Assembly: GCA_963700635.1 (NCBI GenBank)
Contig: CAVOYH010000003.1
Span: 992,001-1,056,000 of the forward strand
Source of the DNA: an uncultured Bacteroidota bacterium
Lineage (GTDB): Bacteria > Bacteroidota > Ignavibacteria > UBA10030 > UBA6906
Length of the DNA: 64,000 nucleotides
Direction of reading: 5' to 3'
In this document: one piece after another, positions 311 to 44,708 of the stretch
How the letters are laid out: every line of letters starts with the position of its first letter
Numbering within the stretch: the first letter of the stretch is position 1
Program-made: the position numbers and the translations under genes
The notes under the pieces: model-generated
Seen by the model: only the letters and a program-made list of their open reading frames with translations
Told to the model about the DNA's origin: nothing
Databases searched by the model: none

Positions 311-3300
311 TTACGGAATTGTCGCACGCAACGTCACGGTTGTTCCCACCCCGGGTGCCGAGGCGATGGTCAGCTCTCCGCCCAGAGAGTGCGCCCGCTG
401 TCGCATGTTGAGAAGCCCATTTCCCTGGCCACCTTCGCGGGGATCAAAGCCGATGCCGTCATCGGCGACTGTCATGACCAGCATCCGGGCTTCGCGGTTG
501 AGGGTGAGGACTACACGATGAGGCCGGGCATGGCGGAGAATATTATTGAGCGCTTCCTTGTAGATCAGGAAGAACCGTCTCCGGAAGTTGAGGGGAAGCC
601 GGAGTGACGAAAGCGCAGCCGGAATGTTGATATCGTAGTTGATACCTTTTGCCTCCAGCATCTTCGTCGCATGCACTTTCATGCGCAGAAGGAGGAATTC
701 GAACGAATCGTTTTTGGGATCGATCGACCAGACGATATCGTTCATGGCATCGATCAACGAACGTGAGGTGGACCCGATTTCGGTGAGGAGGGATGATACC
801 TTTTCCCGTTCATCGCCTGACATCGTCAGCGGGTTCTTCTTCCGGCGGAGTTCACGCAATCCGACATCGCTGTAGAGCGCGATTTCTGTGAGCGATGAAC
901 CGATATCGTCGTGGAGGTCCGTGGCAATGGAAGTCCGGATACGCTCAATTTCCAGCAGCTTGTTGACCCGGTACCGGTACATCAAAAACAGGATGCCGGC
1001 AATCGCCGCGGCAACGAGTATTCTGAACCACCAGGTCCGCCAGTAGGGCGGCACGATGGTGATCGCAAGCGTTGTTCCCTCATCATTCCAGACACCATCG
1101 TTATTTGAGGCGCGCACCCTGAGCGTGTACCTGCCGGGATCGAGATTTGTATAGCTGACATACCGTCGTGTGCCTGCCTCGATCCAATGCTCGTCCAACC
1201 CTTCGAGTTTGTACGCGTACTGATTCTTTCCCGGCGAAGTGTAATTGAGGGCGACAAATTCGAACGACAGGGAGTTACGGTCGTGGGGAAGCTCGATGTC
1301 ACGTATGGTACTCAGCGCACGGGGGAGAGGGAACGTGCGATCGAAGACTCTGAAGCTGGTCAGGTAGACGGGCGGGACAACCAGATTGTCTGAGATACTG
1401 TCGGGGTAGAACGCGTTAAAACCGTTAATGCCTCCCAGGAAGAACTCCCCCCTGTTGCTGCGGAAGTGCGCGCCTTGATTAAATTCATTGCCCTGGAGTC
1501 CGTCCGACACGTCGAACACGCGCACGGCGCCGCTTGAGGGAGTGTACCGTGCGAGGCCTTTGTTGGTGGGGAGCCAGAGATTTCCGTGTGCATCGGGCAG
1601 AATGCCGTAGATAACATCATTGGGAAGGCCGTTTGTTTCGGTGATGTGCTGCCAGGAGTTGCCGGTCCGGTCATACCGATTCAGGCCGCCGCCGTACGTT
1701 CCGATCCAGAGTACGCCCGCGCTGTCTTCGTACAATGAAATGACCGTACTGTTATTGATGCCGTTTGTCTGCCCGGAAACAAACATGTGGCGCTGTATCG
1801 ATCCATCCACCGGATTCAAGCGTGCAAGTCCACCGCCGTACATTCCTATCCAGATCATTCCGGCGCGATCTTCGAGCAACGCGAGGATCGACCCGGCCGG
1901 GAGAGCGTTGGGGTTCCTTTCGTCCGGCGGAAAATGAGTGATACGTCCGGTGGCCGGGTTCGAGCCGGTCGAACCCCGATCCGTTGGTGCCGATGCAGAG
2001 GATACCATTCCGGTCTTCGAGAAGGAGTGTGACTTCATCCTGGGAAATCGAACCGGGATTCCGGGGGTCGTGACGATAGTGTAAAAAGGTTCCGGTGGAT
2101 CGGTCCAGCCGATTTAGTCCGCCCCCTTCGGTGCCGATCCAGAGTTCGCCCGACCGGGTTTCGCACAGAGCGAGAATGTTGTTGTGGCTGATCCCTTCCG
2201 GACGTCCGGGGTCGTGCACAAATTGGGTGAACATCCCTGCCGCACGGTCAAACCGGTTCAGACCGTTGCCGTAGGTCCCGATCCAGATATCTCCCTGCCG
2301 GTCTTCGAGGAGAGCCCACACATCGTTTCCGGTCAGATCGTTGGAACGGCGTTGTTGAGAGCGATAATGGGTGAACCGGTTTTTTAGCCGGTCATAGCGG
2401 TTCACGCCTCCTGCTCCTGTACCGATCCACATGGCACCTGCCTGATCTTCGTACAGCGAACAGATGATGTTGTTGTTGAGGGAATACAACGCTGCGGCGT
2501 CGTGGGTGAATCGTTGCACCGTACCGGTTGCGGGATCAAGAAGGTTTAACCCTGCATCGCCGGTCCCTACCCACATCTTGCCGGCGGGACCTTCATGCAG
2601 CGACAGAATCAAATTGCTGCTCACCGAACGGGGGGTGTCAGGAGAGTACGCATAATGGCGGATTGTTCCGTTGTCCGGATCAAGACAATCGAGTCCATTC
2701 CCCCAGGTACCGATCCAGACACGCTGGCGGCGGTCAATGAGTAATGTCCTGATGTTATCTCCTGCCGGGGTGAGGGCGCCCCGGGAACCATGATGATAGC
2801 GGAAAAAAGAGCCGGCGGGAGTTCGGGATCCCGTCGCAGGCCCGGATTCCGGGGGAACAAATCTGCACACTCCTCCCCAGGTCGCAATCCAGAGCCTTCC
2901 CCGGTTATCCTCATCAATTGCCCAGATGGTGTTGTCGGCGATGGACGTTGAATCCAGGGGATCATGCTCGTAGCGCAGGAATTCTCCCGTTTGCGGGTCA
3001 AAGCGGTTGAGTCCCCTGGTGAGAGTCCCGGCCCAGAGAATACCGCGGGAGTCCTGAAAGACGGATGTAACATTATCTTCACTGATACTTGTGGGGGTGT
3101 CGGGATCATGCCGGTAGTGCGTAAACGTACCTTGTTCGATATTGTACCGGCTCAACCCCCCGCGCATTGTTCCGATCCATACATCCCCATCTGCATCGCG
3201 GCACAGAGCCCAGATACCATTGTCGGACACGGTCAGGGAGTCACTGCTGGTGTGTTTGAAGATGGTGAGCGTATAGCCGTCGTACTTGTTCAGCCCGTCC

Positions 3301-5952: not shown

Positions 5953-6465
5953 ATGGAAGCAACAGTGAATGAAGTGCTGTGGCTCGCATACAGGAACAAG
6001 GAATTCCTGGAAGAACTCCTGGCGAGTCCTGAAAGAGCCGTGAGAGGAAAAGAGATACAACTCACTGCCACCCAGCTGGAAGAGCTCAAGACCCTGCTGG
6101 ATGGGCGCGTGGTGATGGACGGACGGCAAATTTTGAGGATAATAAACGCTGTACTCACGGCAGCGGGAATATCAATGGCACCAGCTCTGGGACCCAGACC
6201 GCTACCGCCTCCGCCCCCGCCTCCACCTCCGCCGTGGAATCCGGATCCTCCTCTGCTACCTGATCCGCCGTGGAGTCAGGGTTCATCCCTGATGCCTACT
6301 CCGTCCGTTCGCCGAAAAAAAACGGTGGTCCGGAGATCTTCAAAACCCGTCCGGCGCACAAAAGCGGCGGTTCGGAAAGCTCCAAAACCCGTACGCCGGG
6401 CAAAAAGAATAGTCCGGAGAACATCGAAAACGGTCAGGAGAAAGTTACCGAAGCGGAGGAAATAA
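5953..6465 (+). CDS. 170-aa protein: NHLP/Os1348-like helical N-terminus, polyproline linker, Arg/Lys-rich heptad-repeat tail
   Basis: SD AAGGA upstream; NKEFLEELLASPERAV..LTATQLEEL; run of 10 Pro; 7 x xxVR(R/K)xx. Confidence 0.75.
   Translation: MEATVNEVLWLAYRNKEFLEELLASPERAVRGKEIQLTATQLEELKTLLDGRVVMDGRQILRIINAVLTAAGISMAPALGPRPLPPPPPPPPPPWNPDPPLLPDPPWSQGSSLMPTPSVRRKKTVVRRSSKPVRRTKAAVRKAPKPVRRAKRIVRRTSKTVRRKLPKRRK
6301..6447 (+). repeat. Seven degenerate 21-bp (heptapeptide) tandem repeats
   Basis: PSVRRKK/TVVRRSS/KPVRRTK/AAVRKAP/KPVRRAK/RIVRRTS/KTVRRKL. Confidence 0.85.
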
Positions 6466-6564
6466 GAGAGGAAAACGACCACGTCACCTCGTTGCAGAAG
6501 TTTACATGCACCCCGGGGAGCGAGGGGTCCCTGAACCGACCCCCTCTTCAGCTCCACCGGAGGA

Positions 6565-6651
6565 ATGATGGTCGGCACATTGGCTTCCCACTACAGAATC
6601 CTCAATCACCCCGGCGAGGGAGGTATGTCTTATGTCCGGAACCACCAGTAA
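6565..6651 (+). pseudogene. Remnant of a Ser/Thr kinase 5' end (28-codon ORF overlapping the PP2C start)
   Basis: MMVGTLASHYRILNHPGEGGMSYVRNHQ* versus [20 protein letters not shown]; upstream CTCCACCGGAGG is identical to the leader of the kinase starting at 14605. Confidence 0.75.
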
Positions 6652-7930
6652 AAAAAATCCACCGCACGTTATGGAGGAGGAGAATCGTCGGCTCCGCCGT
6701 GCGGTGGAGGAGCTCTCAATCCTCAACGACCTGGCACGCGCCATCGGTGGTCTGGTGAATTCACAGGAAATCATGCAGACCATTATTCATCGCTCAGTGC
6801 GTGCCATCCATGCAGAGCAGGGTGTTATCACCATGGTCGATCAGAGGATGGGAGAGCCGATGAAGACCCTGGTGCGCACGATCATGACGTCGGCTGGCCA
6901 GGAACCGTACCATTTTAACCAGAGTCTTCTTGGGTGGATGCAGCTCCACCGTGTTCCTATCACACTAAATGCCCCGCGGGAGGATGCGCGTTTCCAGGGG
7001 GTCCGCTGGGATGAATCCGTACAGTCGTTGCTGTGCGTTCCCCTCATGATCAAAGGGGAAGTACGGGGCGTACTCACGATGTACAATAAGAGGGTGGATG
7101 GTGGATTCACCGATGACGATCAGCGCCTGCTGGCCATCATCGCGGGTCAATCCGCACAGGTGATCGAAAACGCCCGGCTCTACGAGACTGAGCGGACACT
7201 CCTGCATATGCAGGAAGAGGTCCGGCTTGCGGGGCGGATACAGGCCGAGCTTCTCCCGCACGGCCCCCCCGACGTGCCGGGGTATGAGATTGCCGGGCGT
7301 ACGATCCCGGCGCAGGACGTCGGGGGCGACTACTTCGACTTTATCCCGATGAACGGCGACTGTCTGGGGATCTGTCTGGGTGACGTGTCCGGCAAAGGAT
7401 TACCTGCGTCTCTTTTGATGGCGAACGTGCAGGCCACGCTCCGGAGCCAGAGTCTTATTAACGCGCCGCCTCAACTCTGCATCCAACGGGCGAATACCCT
7501 CCTGCTGCAGAGCACAAGCGCGGATAAATTTGTAACGTTGTTCTACGGCGTACTGAATCGTGCACACAACACACTTACCTACGTGAATGCAGGGCACGAG
7601 TATCCGTATCTGTTCACATCCACAAACGAGCCCACCCGCCTTTCCACAGGGGGAGCCCCTCTGAGTATCATCGAGCATTTTCCGTTTGAGGAGCAGACCG
7701 TCACCCTCCAGCCGGGCGACGTGCTTGTCGTGTTCTCGGACGGGGTGACGGAGGCCATGGATGCGCAGTTCGCGCAGTTTGGCCAGGAACGTTTAGGTGA
7801 GCTCCTTCCCGAATGCAGAAACGCATCTCCCTCCGCGATTATTGACCGGATTGTTGCAGAGGTAAGACAGCACGCCGGGACAGCGCCGCAGAATGACGAC
7901 ATTACAATGGTTGTGGTGAAGAGGCTCTGA
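6632..7930 (+). CDS. GAF domain plus SpoIIE/PP2C (RsbU-like) Ser/Thr phosphatase
   Basis: GAF (LCVPL, FTDDDQRLL, ENARLY); VGGDYFD, DVSGKG, SDGVTEA, DDIT. Confidence 0.93.
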   Translation: MSGTTSKKNPPHVMEEENRRLRRAVEELSILNDLARAIGGLVNSQEIMQTIIHRSVRAIHAEQGVITMVDQRMGEPMKTLVRTIMTSAGQEPYHFNQSLLGWMQLHRVPITLNAPREDARFQGVRWDESVQSLLCVPLMIKGEVRGVLTMYNKRVDGGFTDDDQRLLAIIAGQSAQVIENARLYETERTLLHMQEEVRLAGRIQAELLPHGPPDVPGYEIAGRTIPAQDVGGDYFDFIPMNGDCLGICLGDVSGKGLPASLLMANVQATLRSQSLINAPPQLCIQRANTLLLQSTSADKFVTLFYGVLNRAHNTLTYVNAGHEYPYLFTSTNEPTRLSTGGAPLSIIEHFPFEEQTVTLQPGDVLVVFSDGVTEAMDAQFAQFGQERLGELLPECRNASPSAIIDRIVAEVRQHAGTAPQNDDITMVVVKRL

Positions 7931-8044
7931 GTCTTGCCGGCGCGGACAGTACAATGTAGCCGGTCCGATTGACCTCCTCCAGATGGTGGATCTTCCACAT
8001 GCGGAACACTTCACCTGCGTTGAGGCGTTCAATGGCAGTGGTTC

Positions 8045-10663
8045 CTATTCATATTTTCTGATAAGAGCCCGGAATCTGGGGATCCTGTGAAGAGGTTTCC
8101 ATGTGTGCTCAGCTTTGAGGACCGCTGGAGAGACAAACAAAGAAGGGACAGAAAGCAGATACTCCAGGTGGTCCAGCGTCTCGTCGTATCGGCCGAGACA
8201 GACAAGAATCCGCGCGAGGTCAAGAATGGGGCTATCCCCCCGGAGATGATCTCGGGAAATCGGTTGGAGTTCGACGGCACGTTTGCCGTGTCGAACGGCA
8301 TCGTCGGCACGTCCCATAAGAGCATACGTCCACCCGAGCGCGCCATGAACCCGGTGGTCGCTGTCATCCGTCCTCAACTTCCTTTCCAGGACGATCCGGG
8401 CCGAATCAAACCATGCGTATGCCGTGCTCGAATGTCCGGCCTGTGTTTCCACCAGTCCCGAGAAAAAAGAGAACGGATAATAATGCCGCTCGTCTTCATA
8501 AACCTGGCCTGGACTGGATGCGAAGGTGCTGAGCGCTGCAGAGAGGTTGCCCATATAGAGATGATAAAGACTCCGGAAAAACATCAGGCCAGGGTTGTCT
8601 TCGGGAGCAAGCTGTTCCAGGACGGCGAGGGCGCGTGATGCATCGCCGGTTCGCTGCCACACGATCCAGGATTTATTGATGGATGCAGAAACATAGTCCG
8701 GGTAAAGACTCACCGCGCGGGAAGCGAAGTCCTCCGCTTCCTCATATCTTCGTAACGCTGCACACGTCATGGAGAGCTGAATAGCGATATCCACCGAACG
8801 AGGATTCAACGCAAACGCCCGCACCTGGTTTTGACGGGCTTCCTCGAATTTTCCCTGGCGCCTCCAGATATATGCCCGGGATACCAGCAGCTCATCTTTG
8901 TTGGGCATCCGCTGTTCGGCGACTTCAAACTCTGAGAGCGCGCGCTGGAAGTCCTTCCGAACCCAGTACCAATAGTAACCGAGTACTACATGTGCCCTTG
9001 CCAGGTCCGGATCGAGCTGCAAGGCCCTCTCCACTTCCCTGCGTGCCAGTGAGTCCGACGGGTGCTTCTCCTGGTTGAAGTGGTACAGGTGAAGGTAGGT
9101 GTTTGCCAGTTCAGCCCAGGCGAGCACGAACCCGGAGTCAAGTTCGGTTGCCCTGCGAAACATGTGTACGGCCCGCCGATGGTCCTGCACGTCGTAACCC
9201 GGTTGGGCCATTGCATCCATCCCCCGCAGGTAGGCATTATATGCTTCAAGGTTTTCTGTCGGCCTTGCCTCGACCGAAAATGCTTCTCCATCGGTCAGCG
9301 CAACGCGCAACTCCCGAATGACTTGGCGTGCGATGTCTGTCTGGACCTCAAAGATGGCACTCAGCTCACGATCATACCGATCGCTCCAGAGGTGCACGTC
9401 ATCGGCGACACGGATAAGCTGGGGTGTCACGCGGACCAGACTGTGACTGCCGGCACGCTGTTCCCAGCGTACGGTTCCCTCAAGCACATGTGACACACCG
9501 AGCTCTTCTCCGATTTGCCGGAGGGGTTTGCTGGTTTTCTTGTACTGGACAGCGCTCGTGCGTGAGATCACGCCGAGCGCGCGGATTGCTGCCAGACGGC
9601 TGGTGATCTCCTCCGTAACGCCGTCTGCGAAGTACTCATCGTCGGGCGATCCCAGATTTTCGAAGGGGAGAACGACAAGAAGTATCCTTTCGGTGCCAGG
9701 ATCGGAGGCTCTCCCAGAGAGATATGCATAGAGTCCGGCGCCGCAGAGGAGTACCGTAATAGCACCGATCAACCAGTACCGGAGAATTCTCCTCCGGTGC
9801 CTCCCGGACGGAACATCCGCGGTCATCGGAGAAACCCCGCCTGCAGAGTGTGATCCGCCCAGAGCCCGCAGGTCCACCAGGATCTCCTCGACGTGCTGAT
9901 AACGTTCCCCGGGGACTTTGGCCATACACTTGCCCAGAATCCTCTCCAGCTCCATCGGCATTCCGGTGCGAAGACCCGTGAGAGGTTCCGGCTCGGACGT
10001 GAGGATGGAATACAGAAGCGCGTTCTGATACTCTGCAACAAACGGGGGTTTGCCTGAGAGCATCTCGTAGAGGACCACGCCGAACGACCAGATGTCGGTT
10101 CTGTGATCGGCGGATTCTCCCCGTGATTGTTCGGGTGACATGTATGCTGCAGTGCCGAGTGTGGACCCTGTTCTGGTGAGACCCGACAGGCCGCTTAGCT
10201 TCGCCAGCCCGAAATCCACAATCTTGGCTGCCCCGCGGGAAGTGATCATAATGTTCGCGGGTTTGATGTCTCGGTGAATGATCCCCCGCTCGTGCGCACT
10301 AGCAAGCCCGCGGGCCACCTGGATAGCGATATCGATAGCCAGTTCAAGCGGAAGTGGTGCCCGTTCGATCTTCTTCTTCAGCGTCTCGCCTTCAAGACAT
10401 TCCATACTGATGAACATCTGTCCGTCACCGGTCTCATCAATGTCGTGCACGACACAGATGTTAGGGTGCTGGAGGGACGACGCGGCCTGTGCCTCGTGGA
10501 CAAACCGCGCTTTGGCCTCAGCGTCAGTGGTGAGTGCAGGAGGGAGGAACTTGAGTGCGACGGGGCGGTTGAGCCTCAGGTCCTGGGCTTTGTAGACCAC
10601 GCCCATGCCTCCGCCGCCGAGATGCTCGAGGATTTTATAGTGTGAGACCGATGTGCCGACCAT
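8045..10663 (-). CDS. Ser/Thr kinase-TM-TolB-like-TPR protein
   Basis: [17 protein letters not shown]; VLPFENLG...[10 protein letters not shown]; TPR repeats. Confidence 0.93.
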
Positions 10664-12007: not shown

Positions 12008-14605
12008 TCACCGGGAATACTTCTCAAGCAGTCTACTAAATCCGGCCTCGTTCCGGATGTGGTCCCACTGCGGATCCATCCGGAGAAACGCAACCGATAT
12101 CCATGACGGGATGGAAAGGAGGTAATCGAGGCGTTCTATGGCCGCTTCGGTCTCTCCGGTCAGCGCATAGATAAAGGCAAGGTCCTCGACGTAAGGAATC
12201 CCGTAAAATGCGTCCCGGGAGACCGGCAGGAGCTCCACCGCTTTCTTTCCTTCCCGTATTGCATCCTCTTTTCGGCCGAGGGCGGCGTAGGCTATGCCAA
12301 GCGAACTGTGATACCGCGGATCGTTCGGCCATTGCCTGACCTCTGCTTCCAGCATTGATCGTGCTGAGTCGTACGCCGTACGGGATATTTCCCTCTCCCC
12401 CGATAGTCTGCGGGCATAGGCAACCAGAAGTAACTTCGGCATCGCCCAGCATTTGTTGCGAATCCACGCGTCAGGCGATGAGGAAAGTCTCTCGATGGCC
12501 TGCCGGTAGTTCCGTTCAAACATGTCCTGCCAGTACCACACCCATGGTGCCCAGTCATGCGTGGGCGGGACGGCGCCAATGAGAGTCCTGGATTCCGCAT
12601 TGGCGCCCTTCCAGCTCCAGATCGAAAAGACCTTGACGAGATAGGGCCAGGCGTCATCCGGCGCCAGCGCGATGGCCACATTGCTCGTCTTGACAGCCTC
12701 TTCATATTTACGCAGGACCCAGTACTTTTCGGCCAGATCGACCGCCAGCGATGCATCACGCGGACTGAGTTCGAACGCTTTTTGAGTGCTTTCCATGGCT
12801 TCCACCCAGCGCCCGGCAATTGAGGAAACCGCCCCTTTGGCCTCAAGGATCTCGACATTGTGAGGCATCCCCCTTTCGGCAATGGAGAATTGCTCGAGTG
12901 CTTTTTCCGGGTCCCGGCGAGCATAAAGGTAATAGTACCCGAGGGCAAGGTGAACACCAGGCATCTCCGGTGCCAGGGCCACTGCCTGTTGAGCCGCACG
13001 GGAGGCCAATTGCAGCCGATCGGGGGAATGATCCTGCCAGAGGTAGTAGAGGCGGGAATGCGCGTATGCAAGTTCTGCAAAAGCCAGCGCGAACCCGCTG
13101 TCGAGTTCAGTTGCCTGCTGGTACGCCTCCACCACCCGTAACCAGTTTGCGACCGTGAAATGTGGCCGGCTCCTGAAGTACCTTGCGCGCAGGAAGGCCT
13201 GATAGGCTTCGAGATTTCTTGTCGGAGGCACTTCGACACTCTTCCGCTCCGATGAAAGGAGTGTAACACCCAGTCGCTCCGCTACCTTCTGGGATATTTC
13301 CGATTGAAGTACGAAGATATCATCAATCACCCGGTCGTACGTCTCGGCCCAGATGGTGGTCCTGTCGGAAGCACGGGTAAGGTTCGAATTTATCCGTACG
13401 CGGCTTGGACCCCCTTGAGACGGGGCCCAGCGAACAGCTCCCTCCAGCATGTACTCGACGCCCAGCTCCCGCGCAATCTGTTCCATCGGTTTGTCCGTCC
13501 TGGCGTACTGGACTGCACTGGTCCGTGAGATGACCCTCAGGTTACTGAGGGAGGAGAGACGGCTCGTCAGTTCTTCGGTCATCCCGTCGGTGAAATACTC
13601 ATTCTCTGCCGGGCCCAGGTTCTCAAAGGGGAGAACAACCAGTCTACTAACCGGAGGGTAGTCCTTCATCCCGGGTCCACGCATGAAATACCCGATTACT
13701 GTCGCCATGCTTGCGAGAAGGAGAACTGCTGACGCGACCACCCAGCCTCTTTTCACCCTGCGCCACCCTCCCCGGCGTCGTGTTTCCGGCACGGTTGCTG
13801 AGTGGTCTTTTCTTACGCGTCCCAGATCGTATTCGAATTCGTCCATGCGCTGATAACGTTGGGAGGGTTCCTTCTTCAAGGCCTTCCGGATGACTTCTTC
13901 CAGCTGAGATTCGATGCCCGTGATGGGCTTTGCCTCTTCGTTCAATATGGAGTATACCAATGCCTGCTCGTAGTCGCTCTTGAAGGGTGGATGACCGGCG
14001 ATCATTTCGTACAGCACAACACCCAGCGACCAGATGTCGCTTCGTTGATCGACTTCGCTCCCCCGTGCCTGCTCCGGCGACATATAGGTCACAGTCCCCA
14101 GGGTAGAACCAGCCCTGGTGAGCTTTGTTTGTCGGGCGAGCTTCGCCAGCCCGAAATCCACGACTTTTACCGCCCCCTCGATTGTAAGCATGATATTGGC
14201 CGGCTTGACGTCGCGGTGAATGATCCCCCGCTCATGCGCACTGGCAAGCCCGCGGGCCACCTGAATGGCGATATCGATGGCCAGGTCAATCGGAAGCGGG
14301 CCTCGTTCGATCTTCTTCTTCAGCGTCTCGCCTTCAAGACATTCCATACTGATGAACATCTGTCCGTCACCGGTCTCATCAATGTCGTGCACGACACAGA
14401 TGTTAGGGTGCTGGAGGGACGACGCGGCTTGCGCTTCGTGGACAAACCGCGCTTTGGCCTCAGCGTCAGTGGTGAGTGCAGGAGGGAGGAACTTGAGTGC
14501 GACGGGGCGGTTGAGCCTCAGGTCCTGGGCTTTGTAGACCACGCCCATGCCTCCGCCGCCGAGATGCTCGAGGATTGTATAGTGTGAGACCGATGTGCCG
14601 ACCAT
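12008..14605 (-). CDS. Ser/Thr kinase-TM-TolB-like-TPR protein
   Basis: HRDVKPAN, DFG, YMSPEQ; VLPFENLG...YFTDGMTEEL; TPR repeats; paralogue of 8045..10663. Confidence 0.93.
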   Translation of the reverse strand: MVGTSVSHYTILEHLGGGGMGVVYKAQDLRLNRPVALKFLPPALTTDAEAKARFVHEAQAASSLQHPNICVVHDIDETGDGQMFISMECLEGETLKKKIERGPLPIDLAIDIAIQVARGLASAHERGIIHRDVKPANIMLTIEGAVKVVDFGLAKLARQTKLTRAGSTLGTVTYMSPEQARGSEVDQRSDIWSLGVVLYEMIAGHPPFKSDYEQALVYSILNEEAKPITGIESQLEEVIRKALKKEPSQRYQRMDEFEYDLGRVRKDHSATVPETRRRGGWRRVKRGWVVASAVLLLASMATVIGYFMRGPGMKDYPPVSRLVVLPFENLGPAENEYFTDGMTEELTSRLSSLSNLRVISRTSAVQYARTDKPMEQIARELGVEYMLEGAVRWAPSQGGPSRVRINSNLTRASDRTTIWAETYDRVIDDIFVLQSEISQKVAERLGVTLLSSERKSVEVPPTRNLEAYQAFLRARYFRSRPHFTVANWLRVVEAYQQATELDSGFALAFAELAYAHSRLYYLWQDHSPDRLQLASRAAQQAVALAPEMPGVHLALGYYYLYARRDPEKALEQFSIAERGMPHNVEILEAKGAVSSIAGRWVEAMESTQKAFELSPRDASLAVDLAEKYWVLRKYEEAVKTSNVAIALAPDDAWPYLVKVFSIWSWKGANAESRTLIGAVPPTHDWAPWVWYWQDMFERNYRQAIERLSSSPDAWIRNKCWAMPKLLLVAYARRLSGEREISRTAYDSARSMLEAEVRQWPNDPRYHSSLGIAYAALGRKEDAIREGKKAVELLPVSRDAFYGIPYVEDLAFIYALTGETEAAIERLDYLLSIPSWISVAFLRMDPQWDHIRNEAGFSRLLEKYSR

Positions 14606-14724: not shown

Positions 14725-16080
14725 TCAGCCGTCGGCGGGGCCGAGAGACTCTGCAATCCAGGCCAGGTTCTTCAGCGGGACAAATCCATAATTGTAGAAA
14801 TTGAAACTTGTTATGCCCATCTCCCGCGCGGTTTTTACCCGGTCCAGGAATTCGGTTTTTGCGCCACTTTCAAGCATCCCCACCTGGATCCCGACTGTAA
14901 TGTCCCGGCCGGGGATCATCGCCTGCAGCTGAGAGAGAGGCGCACGCAGGGCGGCGCCGTCCCTCACATAGCCGAGCATCAGGACACCACCTGTGATCGC
15001 CGCAACCCGCTCCGGGTTCATCCCCACCATCGTGCGCACAACGGGATCGGGTGAGACCATCGGCCGCACCGTCACGGTTCCAGCTGCTTCCGTCACCTCC
15101 TGAACCAGCGACGCTACAACATTGGTCCGCCAATCCATGAAGGGTTGAAACAGTCCCGAAGGCAAGGCTTCAAGGGCGGGATACCGCCCGGCTACCGCCT
15201 CGGGATCGACAAAACACTCTTCAAGAGTGTTCCGGACAAACTCGCGGATGGGTTTCAGATTCAATCCTGTCAGTTGAGCCCGCTTCGCACAGGAATCACA
15301 GAAACAGAGTCCGAGCAGAAACCGCGGTATTGCGCCAAGCAGGATGCCTTCACGTTCATGATGCTCGCCGTGCGTATACCCCTGAAATTGGAGCGCCTCC
15401 AGTTCGATCGCCGAAACACCCTGGCCGGCAATGTCGCGCACCAGTGCGCGGAGATACGTCCGGACGTCATCATTGGACGGACAGAGGTTATGATAGAGTG
15501 GATCGCCGAATGCCGTCCGTGTGACAATTGAAGGATACGTCCTGCCGAGAGGAGTGTTGTGACAGCAGACCACCCAGCTGCGTGTTTCGAGTCCGAACCG
15601 TTCGGCCTGCTGCTGCACCTTCTTCAGGTCGTGTCCTTTATCAACAAGACTGTTTACACGCGGCTTGATCTTACCGTAGAGCCCGGGGTTCGGTCGGAAG
15701 TACACGGTGCCATCTTCCAGGAACACCACCTTCCGTTTTGGATTGTGGGGTGCAAGGAATTTGCCGGCATGATAGGCCGTTGCCAGACTGATACCCGTAA
15801 GCCGGTGTTCTTTCAGACGGCGGAAAACAGTATCGTACCCTTCATCAACGATATCCCAGAGATAGATCCAGATCGTCCCACGGAGACGCGAATCCAACTC
15901 CGGATTCTGATCCTGGGCGAACCGATCACGTTGTGCTGGCTGGAGGAGCAGGTCAGTGTTTTCGGAAGCGCTGCCGGGCGGCCGGACCACCGGCATGAGC
16001 GAAGCCAGAAGCGTGCTGGCGCCGCTCGCTGCGAGCGGGAGTCCCGCAAGAGCACGGAGGAACAGACGGCGGGTTGTCAT
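14725..16080 (-). CDS. Tat-exported hypothetical protein, probable glycoside-hydrolase-like TIM barrel
   Basis: TRRLFL twin-arginine signal; AYH, CCHN, LCP, ELE and LCFCDSC motifs. Confidence 0.6.
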   Translation of the reverse strand: MTTRRLFLRALAGLPLAASGASTLLASLMPVVRPPGSASENTDLLLQPAQRDRFAQDQNPELDSRLRGTIWIYLWDIVDEGYDTVFRRLKEHRLTGISLATAYHAGKFLAPHNPKRKVVFLEDGTVYFRPNPGLYGKIKPRVNSLVDKGHDLKKVQQQAERFGLETRSWVVCCHNTPLGRTYPSIVTRTAFGDPLYHNLCPSNDDVRTYLRALVRDIAGQGVSAIELEALQFQGYTHGEHHEREGILLGAIPRFLLGLCFCDSCAKRAQLTGLNLKPIREFVRNTLEECFVDPEAVAGRYPALEALPSGLFQPFMDWRTNVVASLVQEVTEAAGTVTVRPMVSPDPVVRTMVGMNPERVAAITGGVLMLGYVRDGAALRAPLSQLQAMIPGRDITVGIQVGMLESGAKTEFLDRVKTAREMGITSFNFYNYGFVPLKNLAWIAESLGPADG

Positions 16081-16089
16081 ACGGTGCTC

Positions 16090-17130
16090 CTATTCCTCGT
16101 CAATGACCCATGTATCAAGGAGGTTCTCCGGTATTCCGGAAATAAATCTCGACGGTTTGGAGAGAATCAGACCTGAGTCCCGGTCGTAGATATTGATCGG
16201 GTAGGTGATAAAAAGATTGTCCTTGGCGCGCGTACAGGCCACATACATCAGGCGTCGCTCTTCTTCCATTGTCTCTTCACTCATGGCAGCCCGCGTGCTG
16301 GGGAACCGGCCGTCAAGGGCATAGATCACAAACACCGAGTTCCACTCAAGTCCCTTGGCGCTGTGGATTGTGGAGAGAATCAGTCTTTCGTCTTCTGCGC
16401 TTGCCGGCGTCAGGTCCGCAACACTTTCGTTCGCCGGTTCGAGACTCAGATCGGTGAGGAACGATCCCAGAGCGCGGTACCGTTCGGCGATCTGCTGGAA
16501 CATTTCCAGATCTTTTTTCCGTTTGTTGAAGTCATCGTATCGCCTGGTGAAAATCGGCTCGTAGTATCCGAGAAGCTGCTGAATCTTGTCGGCGGGTGAA
16601 AGGTGAGCCGGGGCGACTTCCGTGAGCACGGTAAACAGTTCGCGCACTTTCTCAGGATAGCTGTTAAACTGCGACCAGAATGCCGGTAGCGTCGTGTCCG
16701 TTGCGTCACGTTCTGCGGAGACCCGACGCGCCACAATGTCCTCGATAACTTTTTCTGCCGTTCGCGGACCCACCCCATCCACGAGCAACAGGATCCGGTT
16801 CCATGCCACCGCATCACGGGGGTTCTCCAGGACGCGGAGGTAGGCGACAAGATCTTTGATATGCGCAGTCTCGATGAACTTGAATCCCCCGAATTTTACA
16901 AAAGGAATATTGGCCTTGTTGAGTTCGATCTCCAGATCAAAGGAAAGATAACTTGACCGGAACAGGACAGCCATGTCCTGGAGGGCGATACCCTGTTCGC
17001 GGAGTTCAAGGATCTTCTGGATGACGAAACGGGACTGGAGGTTTTCCGTTTGCGCCACAACGATGTTCGGCAGGTCGCCACCCGGACGTTGCGTGAAGAG
17101 CTCTTTGCTGTATTTGTGGCGTGTTGTCAT
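16090..17130 (-). CDS. UvrD/PcrA-family helicase, C-terminal half
   Basis: MAVLFRS, LSTIHSAKGLEW (motif V), EEERRLMYVACTRAK (motif VI), PSRFI. Confidence 0.88.
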   Translation of the reverse strand: MTTRHKYSKELFTQRPGGDLPNIVVAQTENLQSRFVIQKILELREQGIALQDMAVLFRSSYLSFDLEIELNKANIPFVKFGGFKFIETAHIKDLVAYLRVLENPRDAVAWNRILLLVDGVGPRTAEKVIEDIVARRVSAERDATDTTLPAFWSQFNSYPEKVRELFTVLTEVAPAHLSPADKIQQLLGYYEPIFTRRYDDFNKRKKDLEMFQQIAERYRALGSFLTDLSLEPANESVADLTPASAEDERLILSTIHSAKGLEWNSVFVIYALDGRFPSTRAAMSEETMEEERRLMYVACTRAKDNLFITYPINIYDRDSGLILSKPSRFISGIPENLLDTWVIDEE

Positions 17131-17164
17131 CAGTGTCCGTATGTTGTGGAGCGAGGTGTGACCA

Positions 17165-17210
17165 TGTCTGACGCATTCAGATGGAGGAGGAGTGTCTGAT
17201 TCCGTTCAGA
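17165..17210. repeat. Pair of similar short inverted repeats TCTGA-N5/6-TCAGA
   Basis: TGTCTGACGCATTCAGA (17165-17181) and TGTCTGATTCCGTTCAGA (17193-17210). Confidence 0.55.
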
Positions 17211-17249
17211 GGAACCCACTCACATCCGGAGCGCACCATCGCAGGAGTT

Positions 17250-18206
17250 CTAGTTCAAACTCCGACCGATTGACGCGATGTGTTCCGGAGTGGTGCCGCA
17301 GCATCCTCCTACGATGGAAGCCCCCTGTGTGATCCACTCCGCTGCCAGGCGGCCGTACTCTCCGGCATCAACGTCCTCGATCAGCTCTTCCTTACGTTCA
17401 TCTCCGGGCCGGCCGGCGTTCCCGTAGGCGGCGATGAAAGGGCGATAGTCCGGCGCTACCATGCCGGGTATGCCCGCTCCCACCGCTACTTCTGGTATCA
17501 TCCTGTGTTTCTGCAGGATCCGCTGCAATTCCGCAAGCGGTTTTGTTATCGAACGTGCGGCAACACAGTTGACGCTGTAGCCCGCCGGTTTACACGGGAA
17601 GGTTGCAGTAACAGCCGCTTCCAGGCTCTCGCCGCCATACAGCATGCCGTCCGGTGTACAGAGGAAACTCAGCACCACTTCCTTCCCGGTTGCAGCAGCG
17701 GCTTCACATACATGCAGGGCTTCCCGGACCGTGCCGAATGTTTCAAGGAGCAGAAAATCCGCACCGGCATCGGCAAGCCGGCGGGCCTGCAGGGCATGTT
17801 CTTCCGCGAGTTCGGAGTCTGCGGGAACCAGGTCGGGCCTGTAACAATCCTCCAGAGGCGCAAGAGAGCCGGCAACAAGAATATCCCGTCCGGGAAACCG
17901 ATACCGCGCGGCAAGGGCCAGATCCACCGCGCGGCGGGTAAGTTCTTCCGACCGGTCGATGATGCCCGCACGACGGAATGTCCGCGGCGTTGTCCGGAAC
18001 GTATTGGAGGTAAGAATGTGCGCACCGGCGGAGATGTAGTCGATATGAATCTGCGACACCAGATCGGCCGCATCCAGGAGTGCGCGGGCTGACCAGAGAG
18101 GGAGTATGGTATTCGCTCCACGCTTCTGGAGTTCCGTGCCCATGGCGCCGTCCAGAAGCAACACCGTGTGTTTGGCCAGCAGAGCCGACAACGGACCGGG
18201 CATCAT
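17250..18206 (-). CDS. Homocysteine S-methyltransferase family protein
   Basis: LLDGAMGTEL, HIDYISAGA, ETF, VNC and IVGGCCGTTPEHI zinc-ligand motifs. Confidence 0.92.
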   Translation of the reverse strand: MMPGPLSALLAKHTVLLLDGAMGTELQKRGANTILPLWSARALLDAADLVSQIHIDYISAGAHILTSNTFRTTPRTFRRAGIIDRSEELTRRAVDLALAARYRFPGRDILVAGSLAPLEDCYRPDLVPADSELAEEHALQARRLADAGADFLLLETFGTVREALHVCEAAAATGKEVVLSFLCTPDGMLYGGESLEAAVTATFPCKPAGYSVNCVAARSITKPLAELQRILQKHRMIPEVAVGAGIPGMVAPDYRPFIAAYGNAGRPGDERKEELIEDVDAGEYGRLAAEWITQGASIVGGCCGTTPEHIASIGRSLN

Positions 18207-19189
18207 GCCCGCGCTCTCCGCAGGATTTCATTCGTGAGATTCAGGATCGGCTGTGTGCTCCGGTAGTTTTCTTCCAGTTTGATGATGGTGCAGCCGGGGT
18301 ATTGTTCGGGGTACTCCAGGATGTTCTGCACGGTAGCGCCGCGGAAGGCATAGATCGCCTGCGCGTCATCTCCCACCACCATCACATTGCCGTTCTTCCG
18401 GGCCAGGAGCCAGACAATTTCAGCCTGCACGCGGTTTGTATCCTGGTATTCATCCACCATGATGTACTTGTACCGGTCGGCAAGCGTGAGCCGCACACGT
18501 TCATGGTCGCGCAGGAGTGTCCGCAGGTGGACAAGCAGATCATCATAGTCCATCAGGTTGTGGGCGGCCTTGTATGCATCGTAGGCTTTGTGGAGGGCCG
18601 TGATCTCCGGCAGCAATTCCTCGAAATGCGGGTAGTCCTCTTTGAGCACATCATGCAGCGGCGTAGAAGTATTGACCGTGCGCGAGAAAATGTCGAAGAG
18701 AGTCTTCTTGCGCGGAAACCGCCGTTCGCGTGTGTCCAGCTTCAGGCGGGTGCGGAGGAGGTTCACCACGTCTTCGGCATCGGACTGATCCAGTATGGTA
18801 AACGACGACTGGTAGCCCAGCAGCGGTGCGTACTGACGGAGAATCAGATTGGCGAACGAATGGAACGTCCCGCCTGCCACACGCTCACATCGTGCATCCA
18901 GGAGCATGCTTGCTCGACGGAGCATCTCCTGTGCGGCGCGGCGTGTGAATGTGAGGAGCAGAATCGATTCCGGTTTTACGCCCAGCTCCACGAGGTACGC
19001 CACGCGGTAGGTAATCGCACGGGTTTTCCCCGTGCCTGCACCCGCGACGATAAGGTGGGGGCCGTTCACAGAACTGACCGCGGCGTACTGTGCCGGATTC
19101 AGCGCATTCCGATAGTCGATCTGAAACTGGCGGCCGGGTTCTGGTCCGACAACCTCCGCGGGTGTTTTCTTAATGACGTACTTTTTCAC
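18203..19189 (-). CDS. UvrD/PcrA-family helicase, N-terminal half
   Basis: LNPAQ Q-motif, AGAGTGKT Walker A, LTFT, TFHS, VDEYQD Walker B, VGDDAQAIY, LEENYRS; stops about 17 codons after NYRS. Confidence 0.9.
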   Translation of the reverse strand: MKKYVIKKTPAEVVGPEPGRQFQIDYRNALNPAQYAAVSSVNGPHLIVAGAGTGKTRAITYRVAYLVELGVKPESILLLTFTRRAAQEMLRRASMLLDARCERVAGGTFHSFANLILRQYAPLLGYQSSFTILDQSDAEDVVNLLRTRLKLDTRERRFPRKKTLFDIFSRTVNTSTPLHDVLKEDYPHFEELLPEITALHKAYDAYKAAHNLMDYDDLLVHLRTLLRDHERVRLTLADRYKYIMVDEYQDTNRVQAEIVWLLARKNGNVMVVGDDAQAIYAFRGATVQNILEYPEQYPGCTIIKLEENYRSTQPILNLTNEILRRARA

Positions 19190-19842
19190 GATGGCCGTTC
19201 TGCCGGTTCAAATGTTACCAGCGCGCCGTTCCGTTCCACCAGCTCCCTGATCCGGTCTTCCGCACTCCGCCGGACTTCTTCCAGAATGCCCGACCGTTCC
19301 GCTTTGGAACGGGCAGTTGACTGGAGTGTCCTGACGGCATTGGTCCGGTCTTCCTCCGACAGGCGGTTCCACCATCCGTTTTCATCCAGCAACACAACAA
19401 ATGAGTCCATCTGCATCGACAACAACTCCGGCTCCGGCAGTCGAGCCTTCACGCTGAGAGGCGAGGGAATGATCTCGATGTCAAAGGGTCTCTTCAGATT
19501 GTAGCCGGCTTTTGCGGTGAATGTTCCCCGGACATGAAGAATTTTTGTGCTTCCGAGCCAGGTGTGTGACCAATCGTGATCCACCAGAAGGGGGCGGGAG
19601 ACTGTGGCGACTTCAAGAATGGGTGAGCTCTGCTCGATGATCACCGTTTCGTTGATCGTAACGCGCGGTGTTACCTGGAACATCGTCTTGAGTCCGTCGG
19701 CGGTGGCCCGTGCAAGTTCGGCCGGTGCATGGATGAGAAGGCGATAGGCCACAACGGTGCCGCCGATGAACATCAGCGTCGCAAGGATACCCATGATGGT
19801 AACAGCGCGGATACCTCTGGCTTCTGAACCGGAACCGTTCAT
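19186..19842 (-). CDS. DUF4230-like membrane-anchored protein
   Basis: N-terminal TM; G-F-AKAGYNL, LPEPELLS, GILEE pattern; ATGA overlap with the upstream gene. Confidence 0.6.
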   Translation of the reverse strand: MNGSGSEARGIRAVTIMGILATLMFIGGTVVAYRLLIHAPAELARATADGLKTMFQVTPRVTINETVIIEQSSPILEVATVSRPLLVDHDWSHTWLGSTKILHVRGTFTAKAGYNLKRPFDIEIIPSPLSVKARLPEPELLSMQMDSFVVLLDENGWWNRLSEEDRTNAVRTLQSTARSKAERSGILEEVRRSAEDRIRELVERNGALVTFEPAERPS

Positions 19843-20327
19843 CGTTTTCCCCCCAGCGAGCGGAGTCCGGAGAGGCCGAGTGCAATAGCGCCGACGGCGG
19901 TTCCCATGATCGGTGTTGGCACGGCGGCCAGCACGCCCAGTGCGGCAGCAACGCCGATGGCTTTGCCGGCTTTGTCTTTCTTCATGAACTTCTGTATGAA
20001 GAATGTGGGAAGAAATACGGCGAGGAAACATGCCGGGATCGTGACGATCCAGGCAAACGCAGCCATGTCGGGTAAGGTCCAGAGTGCATCGATGACAATA
20101 AGAAGGAGCGCAGAGAGAGGATGGATCAGGGGCTGATCGTTGGGTGCGCCGTGCTTCAGGTCTCCGGCCACCGGCCCTTCGGCCCCTGGCCGTCCGTCGA
20201 CGGATTCTCCGGCGACGGATCTATCGGCCTCCGGCCGTTCGGCCTCTGGCCGTTCGGCCTCTGGCCGTCCGGCTACCGGATGTTCCTGCTCAGAGCTTTT
20301 CGACGGGGTAGTCGGCGAGGATGTCAA
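19839..20327 (-). CDS. Hypothetical membrane protein with N-terminal pentapeptide repeats
   Basis: 3-4 hydrophobic segments, VPTPI motif; start uncertain. Confidence 0.7.
   Translation of the reverse strand: MTSSPTTPSKSSEQEHPVAGRPEAERPEAERPEADRSVAGESVDGRPGAEGPVAGDLKHGAPNDQPLIHPLSALLLIVIDALWTLPDMAAFAWIVTIPACFLAVFLPTFFIQKFMKKDKAGKAIGVAAALGVLAAVPTPIMGTAVGAIALGLSGLRSLGGKR
20163..20282 (-). repeat. Eight degenerate 15-bp tandem repeats (RPEAE-like)
   Basis: CGGCCAGAGGCCGAA twice exact plus six variants. Confidence 0.75.
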
Positions 20328-42135: not shown

Positions 42136-44664
42136 CTACATTATCCCGACCGGATCAACGTCCACGATCACCTGCGTCTTCTTCACACGCCCCTGCACGG
42201 TTTCCGTCGCGTGACGTATGCGGGCATGGGTAATCGCGCCGGAAGGGTCGATACCCTTGACAGTCTTCAAGACAATATGCCAGCGGTACTGACGCTTGAT
42301 CTTGCCTATCACAGCCGGAGCTGGTCCGAGCAGGGCGTAGGGGGGTGTGTCCTTCTTCAGCACATCTGCCAGCCGCTCCGCCAGCTTCCGCACCTCTTCT
42401 TCGTCCTCTCCCCTCGTCTCGACCAATACCAGCCGTGAGAGTGGCGGGTAGTTCAACTCCTCCCGCTCGGCAAACTCTTCCTGGAAATACGCTTCATAAT
42501 CATGATCCAGTATATGGACCAGCGTGCGATGATCAGGCTGTGAGGTCTGAATGATGACTTCGCCCTTGAGCAGACTCCGTCCCGCTCTGCCCGCCACCTG
42601 TGTCAACAGCTGAAAGGTCCGCTCCGAGGAACGGAAATCGGGGAGCAACATCTGCGTATCCGCACTGATAACGCCGACGAGTGTCACGTGGGGAAAATCC
42701 AACCCCTTTGCGACCATCTGTGTGCCCAGCAGAATATCCGCTTCGCGGTCTCCAAACTGCCGCAGTATCCGGTCGTGCGCACCGCGTCGGGAGGTCGTGT
42801 CCAGATCCATCCGGAGCAGTCTGGCAGAGGGAAAGGTTGACGCAAGTTCTTCCTCCACCCTCTGCGTCCCGACACCGTGCAACCGGATTGCCGATCCGCC
42901 ACACTGCGGGCACAGGAGAGCCGGCCGGCGGACAAGTCCGCAATAGTGACAACGGAGATGTTTTTTGCTCAGATGGTACGTCAAAGAAACGTGACAGTTG
43001 TCGCACATTTCAACGTATCCGCACTCGTGACATTCCACAAAGGGCGCAAAGCCCCGCCGGTTTTGCAGAAGGATGATCCCTTCGTGCCGCTCCAGCCGTT
43101 CGGCCATTTTTTCATGCAGGAGTCGGGACAGCGCCGGATGACGGAATTCCTTCATCTTCCCGCGCTGGTCCTGCGGTAACGATTCCCGGGTGGCGGCGTA
43201 CACCTCTTTCCGCTCTTTCGTCAGATCCACAATACGCACGTCGGGCAGGAGTGCATTATCAATCCGGTCGGGCATTGTGAGCAGTTCAAATTTTCCCGAT
43301 CGCGCATTCGCAAAGGATTCAAGGGATGGCGTTGCAGAACCCAGCAGCACGACCGCGCCGGCGTCATGCCCGCGCATGATGGCTACGTCACGCGCATGAT
43401 ACCGTGGCACGGAGTCGTATTGTTTGTAGGACGCTTCGTGCTCTTCATCGACAACAATAAGACCAAGGTTGGGCAGCGGTGCAAACACGGCGGATCTCGG
43501 TCCGATCACGACGCGGCAGCGTCCGTCCAGCGCAAGCCGCCAGACGTCATACCGTTCGCCGGCCGACATCCGGCTATGGACCACCAGGACCTGATCTTCA
43601 AAGTGACTCTTGAATCGCCGGACGATTTGCGGGGTGAGCGAAATCTCCGGAACAAGGACTATCGCAGTTTTCCCTGCGTCCAGACAGTGCCGGATCGCCT
43701 TAATATAGACCTGGGTCTTTCCGCTGGCGGTAACGCCGTGCAGAAGAAAGGTCCGATGCCGTCCTTCATCGAGAGCCGCCACGAGCCGGTCACGAACCTG
43801 TTGCTGGACGGAGTTCAGCACGATCTGCAGTGTTCGCTCTTCCACGCCATACTCCTGCTGGCGTGTCACTTCGCGTCTGACAACCGACAGGAGCCCGCTC
43901 TCACGGAACGGTTTGAGAATCCCGGTGGATGCACCTGACTGTTTTAACAGGTCAAGCAGATCGGCATTTTGAAGACCCTGTTCCTTCAAGGCGAACAGGG
44001 ATGTCAGAAATGTTATCGCCTTTTTCCGCCGTGCCGGGAGTTCGCCGATTGTCGTGCGGAGCGCGGCCACGTCCAGGGTGCGGAGATCCAGAAAGTCACG
44101 CATCTTGATCCCTGCTTTTGGCCGTGGGAGTACTTCCTCGGTGGCCAGAAATCCTTCCTGTTCCATCTCGTTAAGTGCTGCATGAATGGAATTCAAACCG
44201 GTCTGTTTCTTGAGATCTGTAGCGGAAAGGCTGCCATGGTCAAACAGCAGGTCGAGGATACGTGCACGTTTTGAAGAGTGTTTCCGCAGGGTCTCAATCC
44301 GGGGATCAGCCGGCTCAACCAGCGCACGCACCTTTCGCTTGCTCGTTTGTCCGAACCCATGTGGCAGCGCAGCCCGGATCACGTCACCCAGCGGTGCCAT
44401 ATAGTACCGGGCGACCCACGAGCAGATTGTCAGGAGGTGAGTTGAAAGCGACGGTTCCCTGTCCAGTACATCCGCGATGCTTCTCAGGCGCGGATGCGAG
44501 GAGGAGGGAGGCAGGGAGACAATAATTCCGGTTGTGAGCTTTCTGCCAAATGGAACAAGTACACGAACGCCGATACGGGCGGTCGGGAGAAGCTGCTCTG
44601 GAATCAGATAGGTAAACGTTTTGTCGACACCGGCGGGGATGGCGACTTCTGCATAGTGCGGCAT
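42136..44664 (-). CDS. priA: Primosomal protein N'
   Basis: GVTASGKT, VDEEHE, SATPS, four CxxC, GTQMVAKGLD, QVAGRAGR. Confidence 0.96.
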   Translation of the reverse strand: MPHYAEVAIPAGVDKTFTYLIPEQLLPTARIGVRVLVPFGRKLTTGIIVSLPPSSSHPRLRSIADVLDREPSLSTHLLTICSWVARYYMAPLGDVIRAALPHGFGQTSKRKVRALVEPADPRIETLRKHSSKRARILDLLFDHGSLSATDLKKQTGLNSIHAALNEMEQEGFLATEEVLPRPKAGIKMRDFLDLRTLDVAALRTTIGELPARRKKAITFLTSLFALKEQGLQNADLLDLLKQSGASTGILKPFRESGLLSVVRREVTRQQEYGVEERTLQIVLNSVQQQVRDRLVAALDEGRHRTFLLHGVTASGKTQVYIKAIRHCLDAGKTAIVLVPEISLTPQIVRRFKSHFEDQVLVVHSRMSAGERYDVWRLALDGRCRVVIGPRSAVFAPLPNLGLIVVDEEHEASYKQYDSVPRYHARDVAIMRGHDAGAVVLLGSATPSLESFANARSGKFELLTMPDRIDNALLPDVRIVDLTKERKEVYAATRESLPQDQRGKMKEFRHPALSRLLHEKMAERLERHEGIILLQNRRGFAPFVECHECGYVEMCDNCHVSLTYHLSKKHLRCHYCGLVRRPALLCPQCGGSAIRLHGVGTQRVEEELASTFPSARLLRMDLDTTSRRGAHDRILRQFGDREADILLGTQMVAKGLDFPHVTLVGVISADTQMLLPDFRSSERTFQLLTQVAGRAGRSLLKGEVIIQTSQPDHRTLVHILDHDYEAYFQEEFAEREELNYPPLSRLVLVETRGEDEEEVRKLAERLADVLKKDTPPYALLGPAPAVIGKIKRQYRWHIVLKTVKGIDPSGAITHARIRHATETVQGRVKKTQVIVDVDPVGIM

Positions 44665-44708
44665 GCACTGAATATCACCAGAAACAGGGAGGAGTTCAAG
44701 GGGACATG

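Follow-up and report, generated by a model that had tools for sequence, protein, structure and literature searches.

Helicases of the UvrD/PcrA/Rep type in superfamily 1A (SF1A) are single-chain motors, with structures solved for PcrA (1pjr, 2pjr and 3pjr) and UvrD (2is1, 3lfu and 4c2t). Gene fission itself is a known process. In 'genes in pieces', such as nrdA of phage Aeh1, a gene is split by a free-standing homing endonuclease gene, and 'fractured genes' are associated with split inteins. The 'large helicase-related protein' of Nanoarchaeota is an Lhr-type superfamily 2 helicase. Nanoarchaeota carry both this gene and that for reverse gyrase in split form (PMC3655853, Table 1). We found no report of a split UvrD/PcrA-type helicase in the full-text literature, supplementary files aside. 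Here we describe such a gene in a 64,000-nucleotide (nt) stretch of DNA from an uncultured Bacteroidota bacterium (contig CAVOYH010000003.1, positions 992,001 to 1,056,000; the whole stretch is called the window below). Its two halves, helN and helC, lie on either side of a homocysteine S-methyltransferase family gene, HMT. We consider it highly likely that an old, fixed gene fission has produced a two-chain superfamily 1 (SF1) helicase, and that HMT is a later passenger.

The locus consists of three consecutive minus-strand open reading frames (ORFs). The first, helN (18203–19189; 328 amino acids (aa), GTG start), is the N-terminal half of a UvrD-like SF1 helicase and contains motifs I, Ia, II, III and IV (NYRS). 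HMT (17250–18206, 318 aa) follows, and its ATG overlaps the helN stop codon (ATGA). A 119-nt minus-strand spacer (17131–17249) then leads from the HMT stop to helC (16090–17130, 346 aa), which starts at its own ATG and encodes what remains of domain 2A together with domain 2B and motifs V and VI. The C-terminal end of helN reads ...NYRSTQPILNLTNEILRRARA before the stop codon, and helC begins MTTRHKYSKELFT. From the helN stop to the helC start there are 1072 nt, and the two motor domains are not on one polypeptide. Pfam assigns helN to PF00580 (UvrD-helicase; 2.3e-72, 244 bits against a cut-off of 23, profile positions 1–270 of 271), HMT to PF02574, and helC to PF13361 (UvrD_C; 5.2e-51, 174.5 bits against a cut-off of 25.6, positions 28–347 of 350). 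The G+C contents of helN (57.8%), HMT (60.9%) and helC (53.8%) are unremarkable beside that of the window (56.7%). When a script excised 17123–18212 (1090 nt), the remaining 2010 nt formed 669 codons and one terminal stop. The original prediction, which was made from the sequence of this stretch, had described a UvrD-family helicase cut by a 1090-bp block bearing a homocysteine methyltransferase, with about 120 bp of intergenic DNA, an ATGA overlap between the N-half stop and the methyltransferase start, an in-frame ATG for the C-terminal half, and a single 669-codon frame upon deletion of the block. All of these features were reproduced here.

The two halves divide one helicase between them without leaving a gap. 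On the 725-position NCBIfam pcrA model, helN covers positions 3–295 (273 bits) and helC positions 298–638 (177 bits). helN thus has the N-terminal ATP-binding domain with motifs I–IV of UvrD/Rep/PcrA-type SF1A helicases, and helC has the C-terminal domain with motifs V and VI. We aligned 46 rows for each half, mixing split and unsplit orthologs. In helN, the invariant residues are G50, G52, G54, K55 and T56; D246, E247, Q249 and D250; G273, D274, D275, Q277, Y280, R283 and G284; and N308, R310 and S311. These are the residues of the Walker A, DEYQD, GDD..Q.IY.FRG and N..RS sequences. In helC, S253, T254, H256, S257, K259, G260, E262 and W263 (STIHSAKGLEW) and Y296, V297, A298, T300 and R301 (YVA.TR) are likewise invariant. 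We take these sets to represent the canonical motifs I, II, III, IV, V and VI, and the earlier statement that all helicase motifs are intact holds across the alignments of both halves. The helicase is not a canonical family member. Even an unbroken ortholog (L047) falls far below the NCBIfam equivalog cut-offs for pcrA (TIGR01073, 478 versus 911 bits), uvrD (TIGR01075, 390 versus 1144 bits) and rep (TIGR01074, 369 versus 951 bits). The gene is therefore a distinct, uncharacterised paralog beside the canonical 770-aa UvrD-like gene that the ∼4.2-Mb source genome also encodes, together with a 1123-aa helicase.

The break is conserved across the order to which the window belongs. Of the 277 genomes in this order, 184 contain a helN ortholog and 178 a helC ortholog at E ≤ 1e-100; a manual comparison of both lists gives 164 genomes with both halves, 20 with helN alone and 14 with helC alone. 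By family, the counts for helN and helC are 42/67 and 41/67 in the window's own family (f1), 7/11 and 8/11 in f2, 3/3 and 3/3 in f3, 2/3 and 2/3 in f4, 37/44 and 32/44 in f5, 16/55 and 16/55 in f7, and 76/86 and 75/86 in f8. Neither half was found in f6 (0/4 each), f9 (0/3 each) or genus g36 (0/12 each). Among the 150 helN places listed, a 669-aa frame, long enough to be unbroken, occurs only in two f4 genomes (G027 and G035). Other longer frames were inspected (in G019, G022, G008, G144, G208, G199, G097 and G090) and are all split. Four weaker f7 matches, fetched from 35 beyond these 150, are split at the same site. Proteins that match helN are common in public records, where 7108 of 7999 scored candidates of 180–574 aa do so at E ≤ 1e-30. 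The best 120 of these 7108 matches are 316–364 aa long, all come from this clade, and are called 'PcrA' or 'ATP-dependent helicase' where they are named at all; they are stand-alone halves and not truncated genes.

Within f1, the order helN-HMT-helC recurs in 17 of 19 loci from other genomes. An exception in G015 reflects a contig break, as HMT and helC lie together on another contig and a congener (G220) keeps the three genes together on a single contig. Genus g13 (G017 and G219) is different: helN and helC sit on different contigs among unrelated neighbours, with a convergent KdpC gene after helN, a gene whose secreted product bears a type IX sorting domain before helC, and HMT ∼9 kb from helN. 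This is a true unlinking of the halves. Beyond the oddity of the arrangement itself, nothing speaks for an assembly chimera or a recent strain-specific rearrangement. We give that explanation practically no weight, because the gene order is repeated in other genomes of the family and also in public metagenome-assembled genome (MAG) records from independent studies. The misassembly that the original prediction had allowed for is contradicted by these many independent assemblies. Its other suggestion, a recent or programmed rearrangement, conflicts with the age of the break and with a cargo that varies or is absent.

To place the break in time, we compared 80 loci from public genomes. Every ortholog outside the clade is one open frame without stops. 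These unbroken records are labelled Kryptonia, Melioribacteraceae, Kapaibacterium, Chlorobiota, Desulfobaccales, other 'delta proteobacteria', Gemmatimonadaceae and a Gastranaerophilales MAG. The synteny comparison proposed with the original prediction returned the same break across the order, apart from f4, and a single gene outside the clade. In nearly all unsplit loci, the distance between the helN and helC matches, normalised to the query, is −3 nt. helN residue 327 and helC residue 4 therefore share one column, and joining the window sequence across 17123–18212 gives back precisely the ancestral length. Past this column helN continues for one residue, and helC has three extra residues. 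The earlier claim that no codons are lost or doubled is borne out to this extent: apart from the one shared residue column, the joint has the length of the unbroken orthologs.

We then built a maximum-likelihood tree from 72 concatenated rows (38 unsplit and 34 split), dropping L025 and L027 as duplicates of L047 and L048, and L105 for an internal stop. The split rows and two unbroken f4 rows form one clade, with a Shimodaira-Hasegawa-like approximate likelihood ratio test (SH-aLRT) support of 100. The branches within it are not longer than those of the unsplit relatives. When four f7 rows were added, support for the clade was 99, and f7 was placed among the short-gap forms. On these trees, a single origin of the split is well supported, and the conserved break looks like one single, fixed and old event.

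Both halves are under strong purifying selection. We estimated the ratio of non-synonymous to synonymous substitution rates (dN/dS), another check proposed with the original prediction, by the Nei-Gojobori method over eight pairs. The values are 0.03–0.10 for helN, 0.03–0.16 for helC and, over the seven pairs in which it was estimable, 0.16–0.29 for HMT; all are rough because dS is saturated in every pair (1.1 to >4). The contrast in the underlying differences is plain all the same, at ∼5–15% for non-synonymous and 57–75% for synonymous ones. These data bear on the explanation that the helicase was inactivated by an insertion and that the two ORFs are decaying remnants. Such a pseudogene would fit a gene that is non-essential, missing from many genomes of the order, and frameshifted in one half in a few of them. 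However, both halves are full length with dN/dS of 0.03–0.16 at dS above 1, all motif residues are invariant, the break is kept across seven families and at least 164 genomes, and the split clade shows no lengthening of its branches relative to the unsplit rows. We judge decay to be very improbable.

The position of the cut suggests how two chains might form one motor. For an unbroken ortholog from f4 (663 aa), an AlphaFold model (predicted local distance difference test (pLDDT) score 86, predicted template modelling score 0.85) places a strand at residues 300–304, followed by motif IV, a helix at 312–323, a coil at 324–343 and a strand at 344–348. The break corresponds to residues 326/327, in the coil 3–4 residues past the helix that follows motif IV (NYRS), and so lies in a surface loop. 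The original prediction had placed NYRS near the junction of the two RecA-like domains. The break does fall just after motif IV; it lies slightly inside the second motor domain, however, and not at the boundary. With the cut in this position, the second motor domain needs one strand and one helix supplied by helN. A complex prediction for helN and helC gave a median score of 0.69, compared with 0.00 for the best of three controls, and so passed a mark that 58 of 80 solved complexes and 2 of 110 mismatched pairs reach. At least 87% of contacts were common to the runs, with partner pLDDT of at least 80. In the predicted complex, the helN strand-helix unit (residues 302–327) packs on helC residues 4–21, 285–306 and 329–338, including the motif VI region. 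helN matches residues 12–301 of solved PcrA at E = 1.5e-52, and the complex may therefore have passed through memory of, or likeness to, the solved single-chain PcrA and UvrD structures. The likeness to these enzymes extends from family and motif set to the predicted two-chain fold, which mimics the single chain; the difference is that helN and helC are two polypeptides, cut inside the second motor domain.

The halves might instead do separate jobs without assembling, with helN alone acting as an ATPase, for example, or helC alone as a DNA-binding protein. The unlinked genes of g13 and the 20 helN-only and 14 helC-only genomes at 1e-100 speak for this explanation. At the level of families and genera, however, the halves are gained and lost together. 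When 10 discordant genomes were re-examined at E ≤ 1e-15, the second half turned up in seven of them, in pieces, frameshifted or at contig ends. An SF1 helicase needs motifs I–IV, here in one half, and motifs V and VI, here in the other, to build its ATP site, which counts further against independent functions. In addition, the complex model buries the C-terminal strand-helix of helN in the helC domain. Separate jobs therefore seem unlikely to us, though less so than decay.

The junctions fall into two classes. In class A (f1, f2, f3 and f5), helN ends in ...RAR(E/D/A) before the stop codon and helC begins M..RHKY, and each side of the break carries the two codons found as (R/K)-E in unbroken genes. 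In class B (f7 and f8), helN has a short variable tail past ...ILKRG and helC begins MY(Y/T)KEL. Pfam detected no recombinase domain in the 1090-nt block, where HMT is the only gene, and no intein domain. No terminal repeats pair the block ends at 17123 and 18212, and only short scattered repeats at chance level were seen. An Rfam search over 15800–20200 found no intron, riboswitch or other family, its one match (E = 0.33) being at chance level. The original prediction of a block free of recombinases, terminal repeats and intron-like features agrees with all three scans. Within the 119-nt spacer, the predicted RNA fold is no better than that of shuffled sequences (z = −0.16), and no TAnnTTTG-type motif was seen by eye. 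A scan for sigma-70-type promoters and terminators gave counts at or below shuffled expectation, with none in the spacer.

Several specific candidates were rejected on these grounds. A split intein is at odds with the lack of intein-sized extensions on helN and helC and of any Pfam intein domain. A mobile element or one removed by programmed excision would be expected to show a recombinase or transposase and end-pairing repeats, and neither was detected in the block. Group I and group II introns and other structured RNAs are not indicated by any Rfam match above chance. Splitting by a free-standing homing endonuclease does not fit nested genes that encode PF02574, weak PF03372 or no-Pfam proteins.

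More generally, the halves could be rejoined after transcription or translation, or by programmed DNA excision, through a split intein, a trans- or cis-splicing intron, or ribosomal bypass. The seamless break would suit such a mechanism, as would the gaps of a few to 54 nt in many relatives and the two codons (R-E and R-H) found on both sides of class A junctions. Against it stand the absence of intein-sized extensions, Rfam introns, recombinases and terminal repeats; the start codon that almost every helC possesses at the break; gap lengths and sequences that are not conserved; and the unlinked halves of g13. We think rejoining about as improbable as decay of the gene.

What lies between the halves differs from family to family. 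In f7, f8 and one f2 genome, the gap is 2–54 nt and holds no gene, and some f8 members have 110–344 nt of non-coding DNA. f2 and f5 carry a 255–288-aa protein resembling the endonuclease/exonuclease/phosphatase (EEP) family, with a lipoprotein-like N-terminal signal by eye. Its match to PF03372 is weak, as only one of three proteins scores above the Pfam cut-off (34.7 bits) and two fall below it. f3 has a 115-aa ORF and a 189-aa membrane protein, neither belonging to a Pfam family, and f1 has HMT. In L065, the 344-nt gap (2605–3007, from the stop to the helC match) contains a repeated unit: one ∼24-residue string appears three times over on the opposite strand, suggestive of a small repeat element in the slot.

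HMT is a full-length member of PF02574 (3.1e-59, 201.6 bits where the cut-off is 22, over profile positions 1–281 of 283), falls below the equivalog cut-off of NCBIfam NF007020 (165.9 versus 215 bits), and has near its C-terminus a GGCCG motif, which we take to be the zinc site. Orthologs were found in 21 of the 24 f1 genomes examined. Among 16 genomes examined from the other eight families, there was one weak match (37% identity), located elsewhere in G027. In the 72-row tree, the nine HMT-bearing rows form their own clade (SH-aLRT 100). Because its orthologs are confined to f1, HMT was acquired in the ancestor of that family. A later deletion removed it from G208 (and from L084, which appears to be the same locus), where the split is retained with a gap of ∼27 nt, and in L098 it is reduced to a C-terminal remnant. 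Conversely, G020 of genus g16 keeps an HMT ortholog (G020:C47, 20115–20795), and none of the four genomes of this genus has helN or helC at E ≤ 1e-100; HMT can thus outlive the helicase in a genome. This distribution points to HMT as a passenger, probably a metabolic one, that neither caused the split nor takes part in the helicase.

We propose that the gene for a UvrD/PcrA-like SF1 helicase of ∼669 aa split in two in an ancestor of the window's order, a group of Ignavibacteria-type bacteria. helN and helC would be translated separately, and their chains would come together non-covalently. The C-terminal strand-helix unit of helN would complete the second RecA-like domain, otherwise built by helC, and the ATP site would form between the two chains. 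The slot between the halves would later have taken up unrelated genes, different in each family, among them HMT in the f1 ancestor, which would have no involvement in the helicase. Because both halves are kept intact across the whole order, the pair most likely works as a two-protein enzyme. Of the explanations offered in the original prediction, a functional two-chain SF1 helicase with a nested gene is the one that fits the order-wide break, the purifying selection, the intact motifs and the unlinking in g13.

Several points weigh against this proposal. The production of both proteins, their binding and the helicase activity are what we infer from sequence. The helicase is dispensable, as many genomes of the order gave no match to it (e.g. 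0/12 in g36). The second half was not found at E ≤ 1e-15 in G094, G107 and G210, three of the 10 discordant genomes re-examined. One half is frameshifted in G193, G175 and G195, where it is spread over 2–3 reading frames (G193:C3 78136–79172, G175:C86 15095–16124 and G195:C32 126801–127785), which may reflect gene decay or an insertion-deletion error in sequencing or assembly. An f1 relative (L040) has no ATG, GTG or TTG near the helC start: none occurs within some 45 codons upstream of the conserved helC RHKY (∼2860–3001). The sole sequencing run listed (DNA contigs, 7% of sampled words) covers no junction, and touches the window in five small pieces inside helC and the HMT end. The saturated dS and the likeness of the predicted complex to solved structures, both described above, belong to the same side of the balance.

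The two unbroken f4 genes raise the question of whether the split can be reversed. In both trees, f4 is nested within the sister clade (support 99), and this position inside the split clade favours one split followed by one re-fusion. An approximately unbiased (AU) test did not reject a tree with all 34 split rows as a clade and f4 outside (delta lnL 29.7, p = 0.092). The unbroken state of f4 probably arose by re-fusion, judging from these sequence comparisons. It is tempting to speculate that the locus has passed through a full cycle of fission, cargo capture, unlinking and exact re-fusion, although we hold this only tentatively and consider it rather doubtful. One ancestral insertion would have cut the helicase and left a two-codon duplication, visible in f1, f2, f3 and f5 as R-E where helN ends and R-H where helC starts. 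The opened slot in the helicase operon would then have gained, and later shed, at least three unrelated genes. f4 would finally have regained a single 669-aa gene of exact ancestral length via recombination across the duplicated codons.

Among known systems, 'genes in pieces' likewise show a gene interrupted by another gene with both halves remaining functional ORFs. Here, in contrast to these and to 'fractured genes', the cargo is not a homing endonuclease, there is often no nested gene, and there are no intein fragments. The split genes of Nanoarchaeota are also fissions of large enzymes, including helicase-type proteins, kept as separate genes, with some break sites common to lineages (PMC3655853). 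The nanoarchaeal halves are scattered in the reduced genomes of symbionts, whereas the present genome is of free-living size (∼4.2 Mb) and has one split gene. helN and helC are, moreover, mostly neighbours with nested genes between them, and the helicase is of a different family. The locus would offer a natural two-chain version of a much-studied motor protein, backed by long evolutionary retention. It could serve as a ready-made design for split-helicase engineering and as a test of the degree of backbone continuity that SF1 motors require. It also gives a densely sampled view of the aftermath of a gene fission, with retention of the halves, a slot repeatedly filled and emptied, one unlinking and probably one re-fusion. 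For annotation, many ∼330-aa public proteins match helN, and the best of them should be read as stand-alone halves.

Upstream of helN on the minus strand lies a DUF4230 gene (19186–20031; PF14014 at 5.9e-12) whose stop overlaps the helN GTG (GTGA) and which is probably in the same operon. Downstream, a minus-strand ORF of 451 aa with no Pfam family (14725–16080) starts 9 nt past the helC stop. We infer an operon of DUF4230, helN, HMT, helC and this next ORF, with stop/start overlaps at its first two joints. In the synteny comparison, the DUF4230 and 451-aa genes are neighbours in close relatives only, and flanking-gene synteny is therefore uninformative for the split.

Two other genomes show extra copies. 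G147 carries two inverted helN-helC pairs ∼50 kb apart with identical scores (G147:C31 35573–37761 on the plus strand and 87566–89754 on the minus strand), either a real inverted duplication or an assembly artefact. L027 (G039:C17) has a second, partial copy (1671–2100) ∼4.7 kb upstream of its main copy (6424–8463). This copy spans the break region only, with helN 259–326 at 69% identity and helC 7–50 at 52% identity ∼94 nt apart, and looks like a decayed local duplicate of a split junction. Elsewhere in the window, three minus-strand ORFs encode proteins of 865–872 aa (8045–10663, 12008–14605 and 42136–44754). By eye, the second of these (12008–14605) has an N-terminal Ser/Thr protein kinase-like region and a repeat-rich end.

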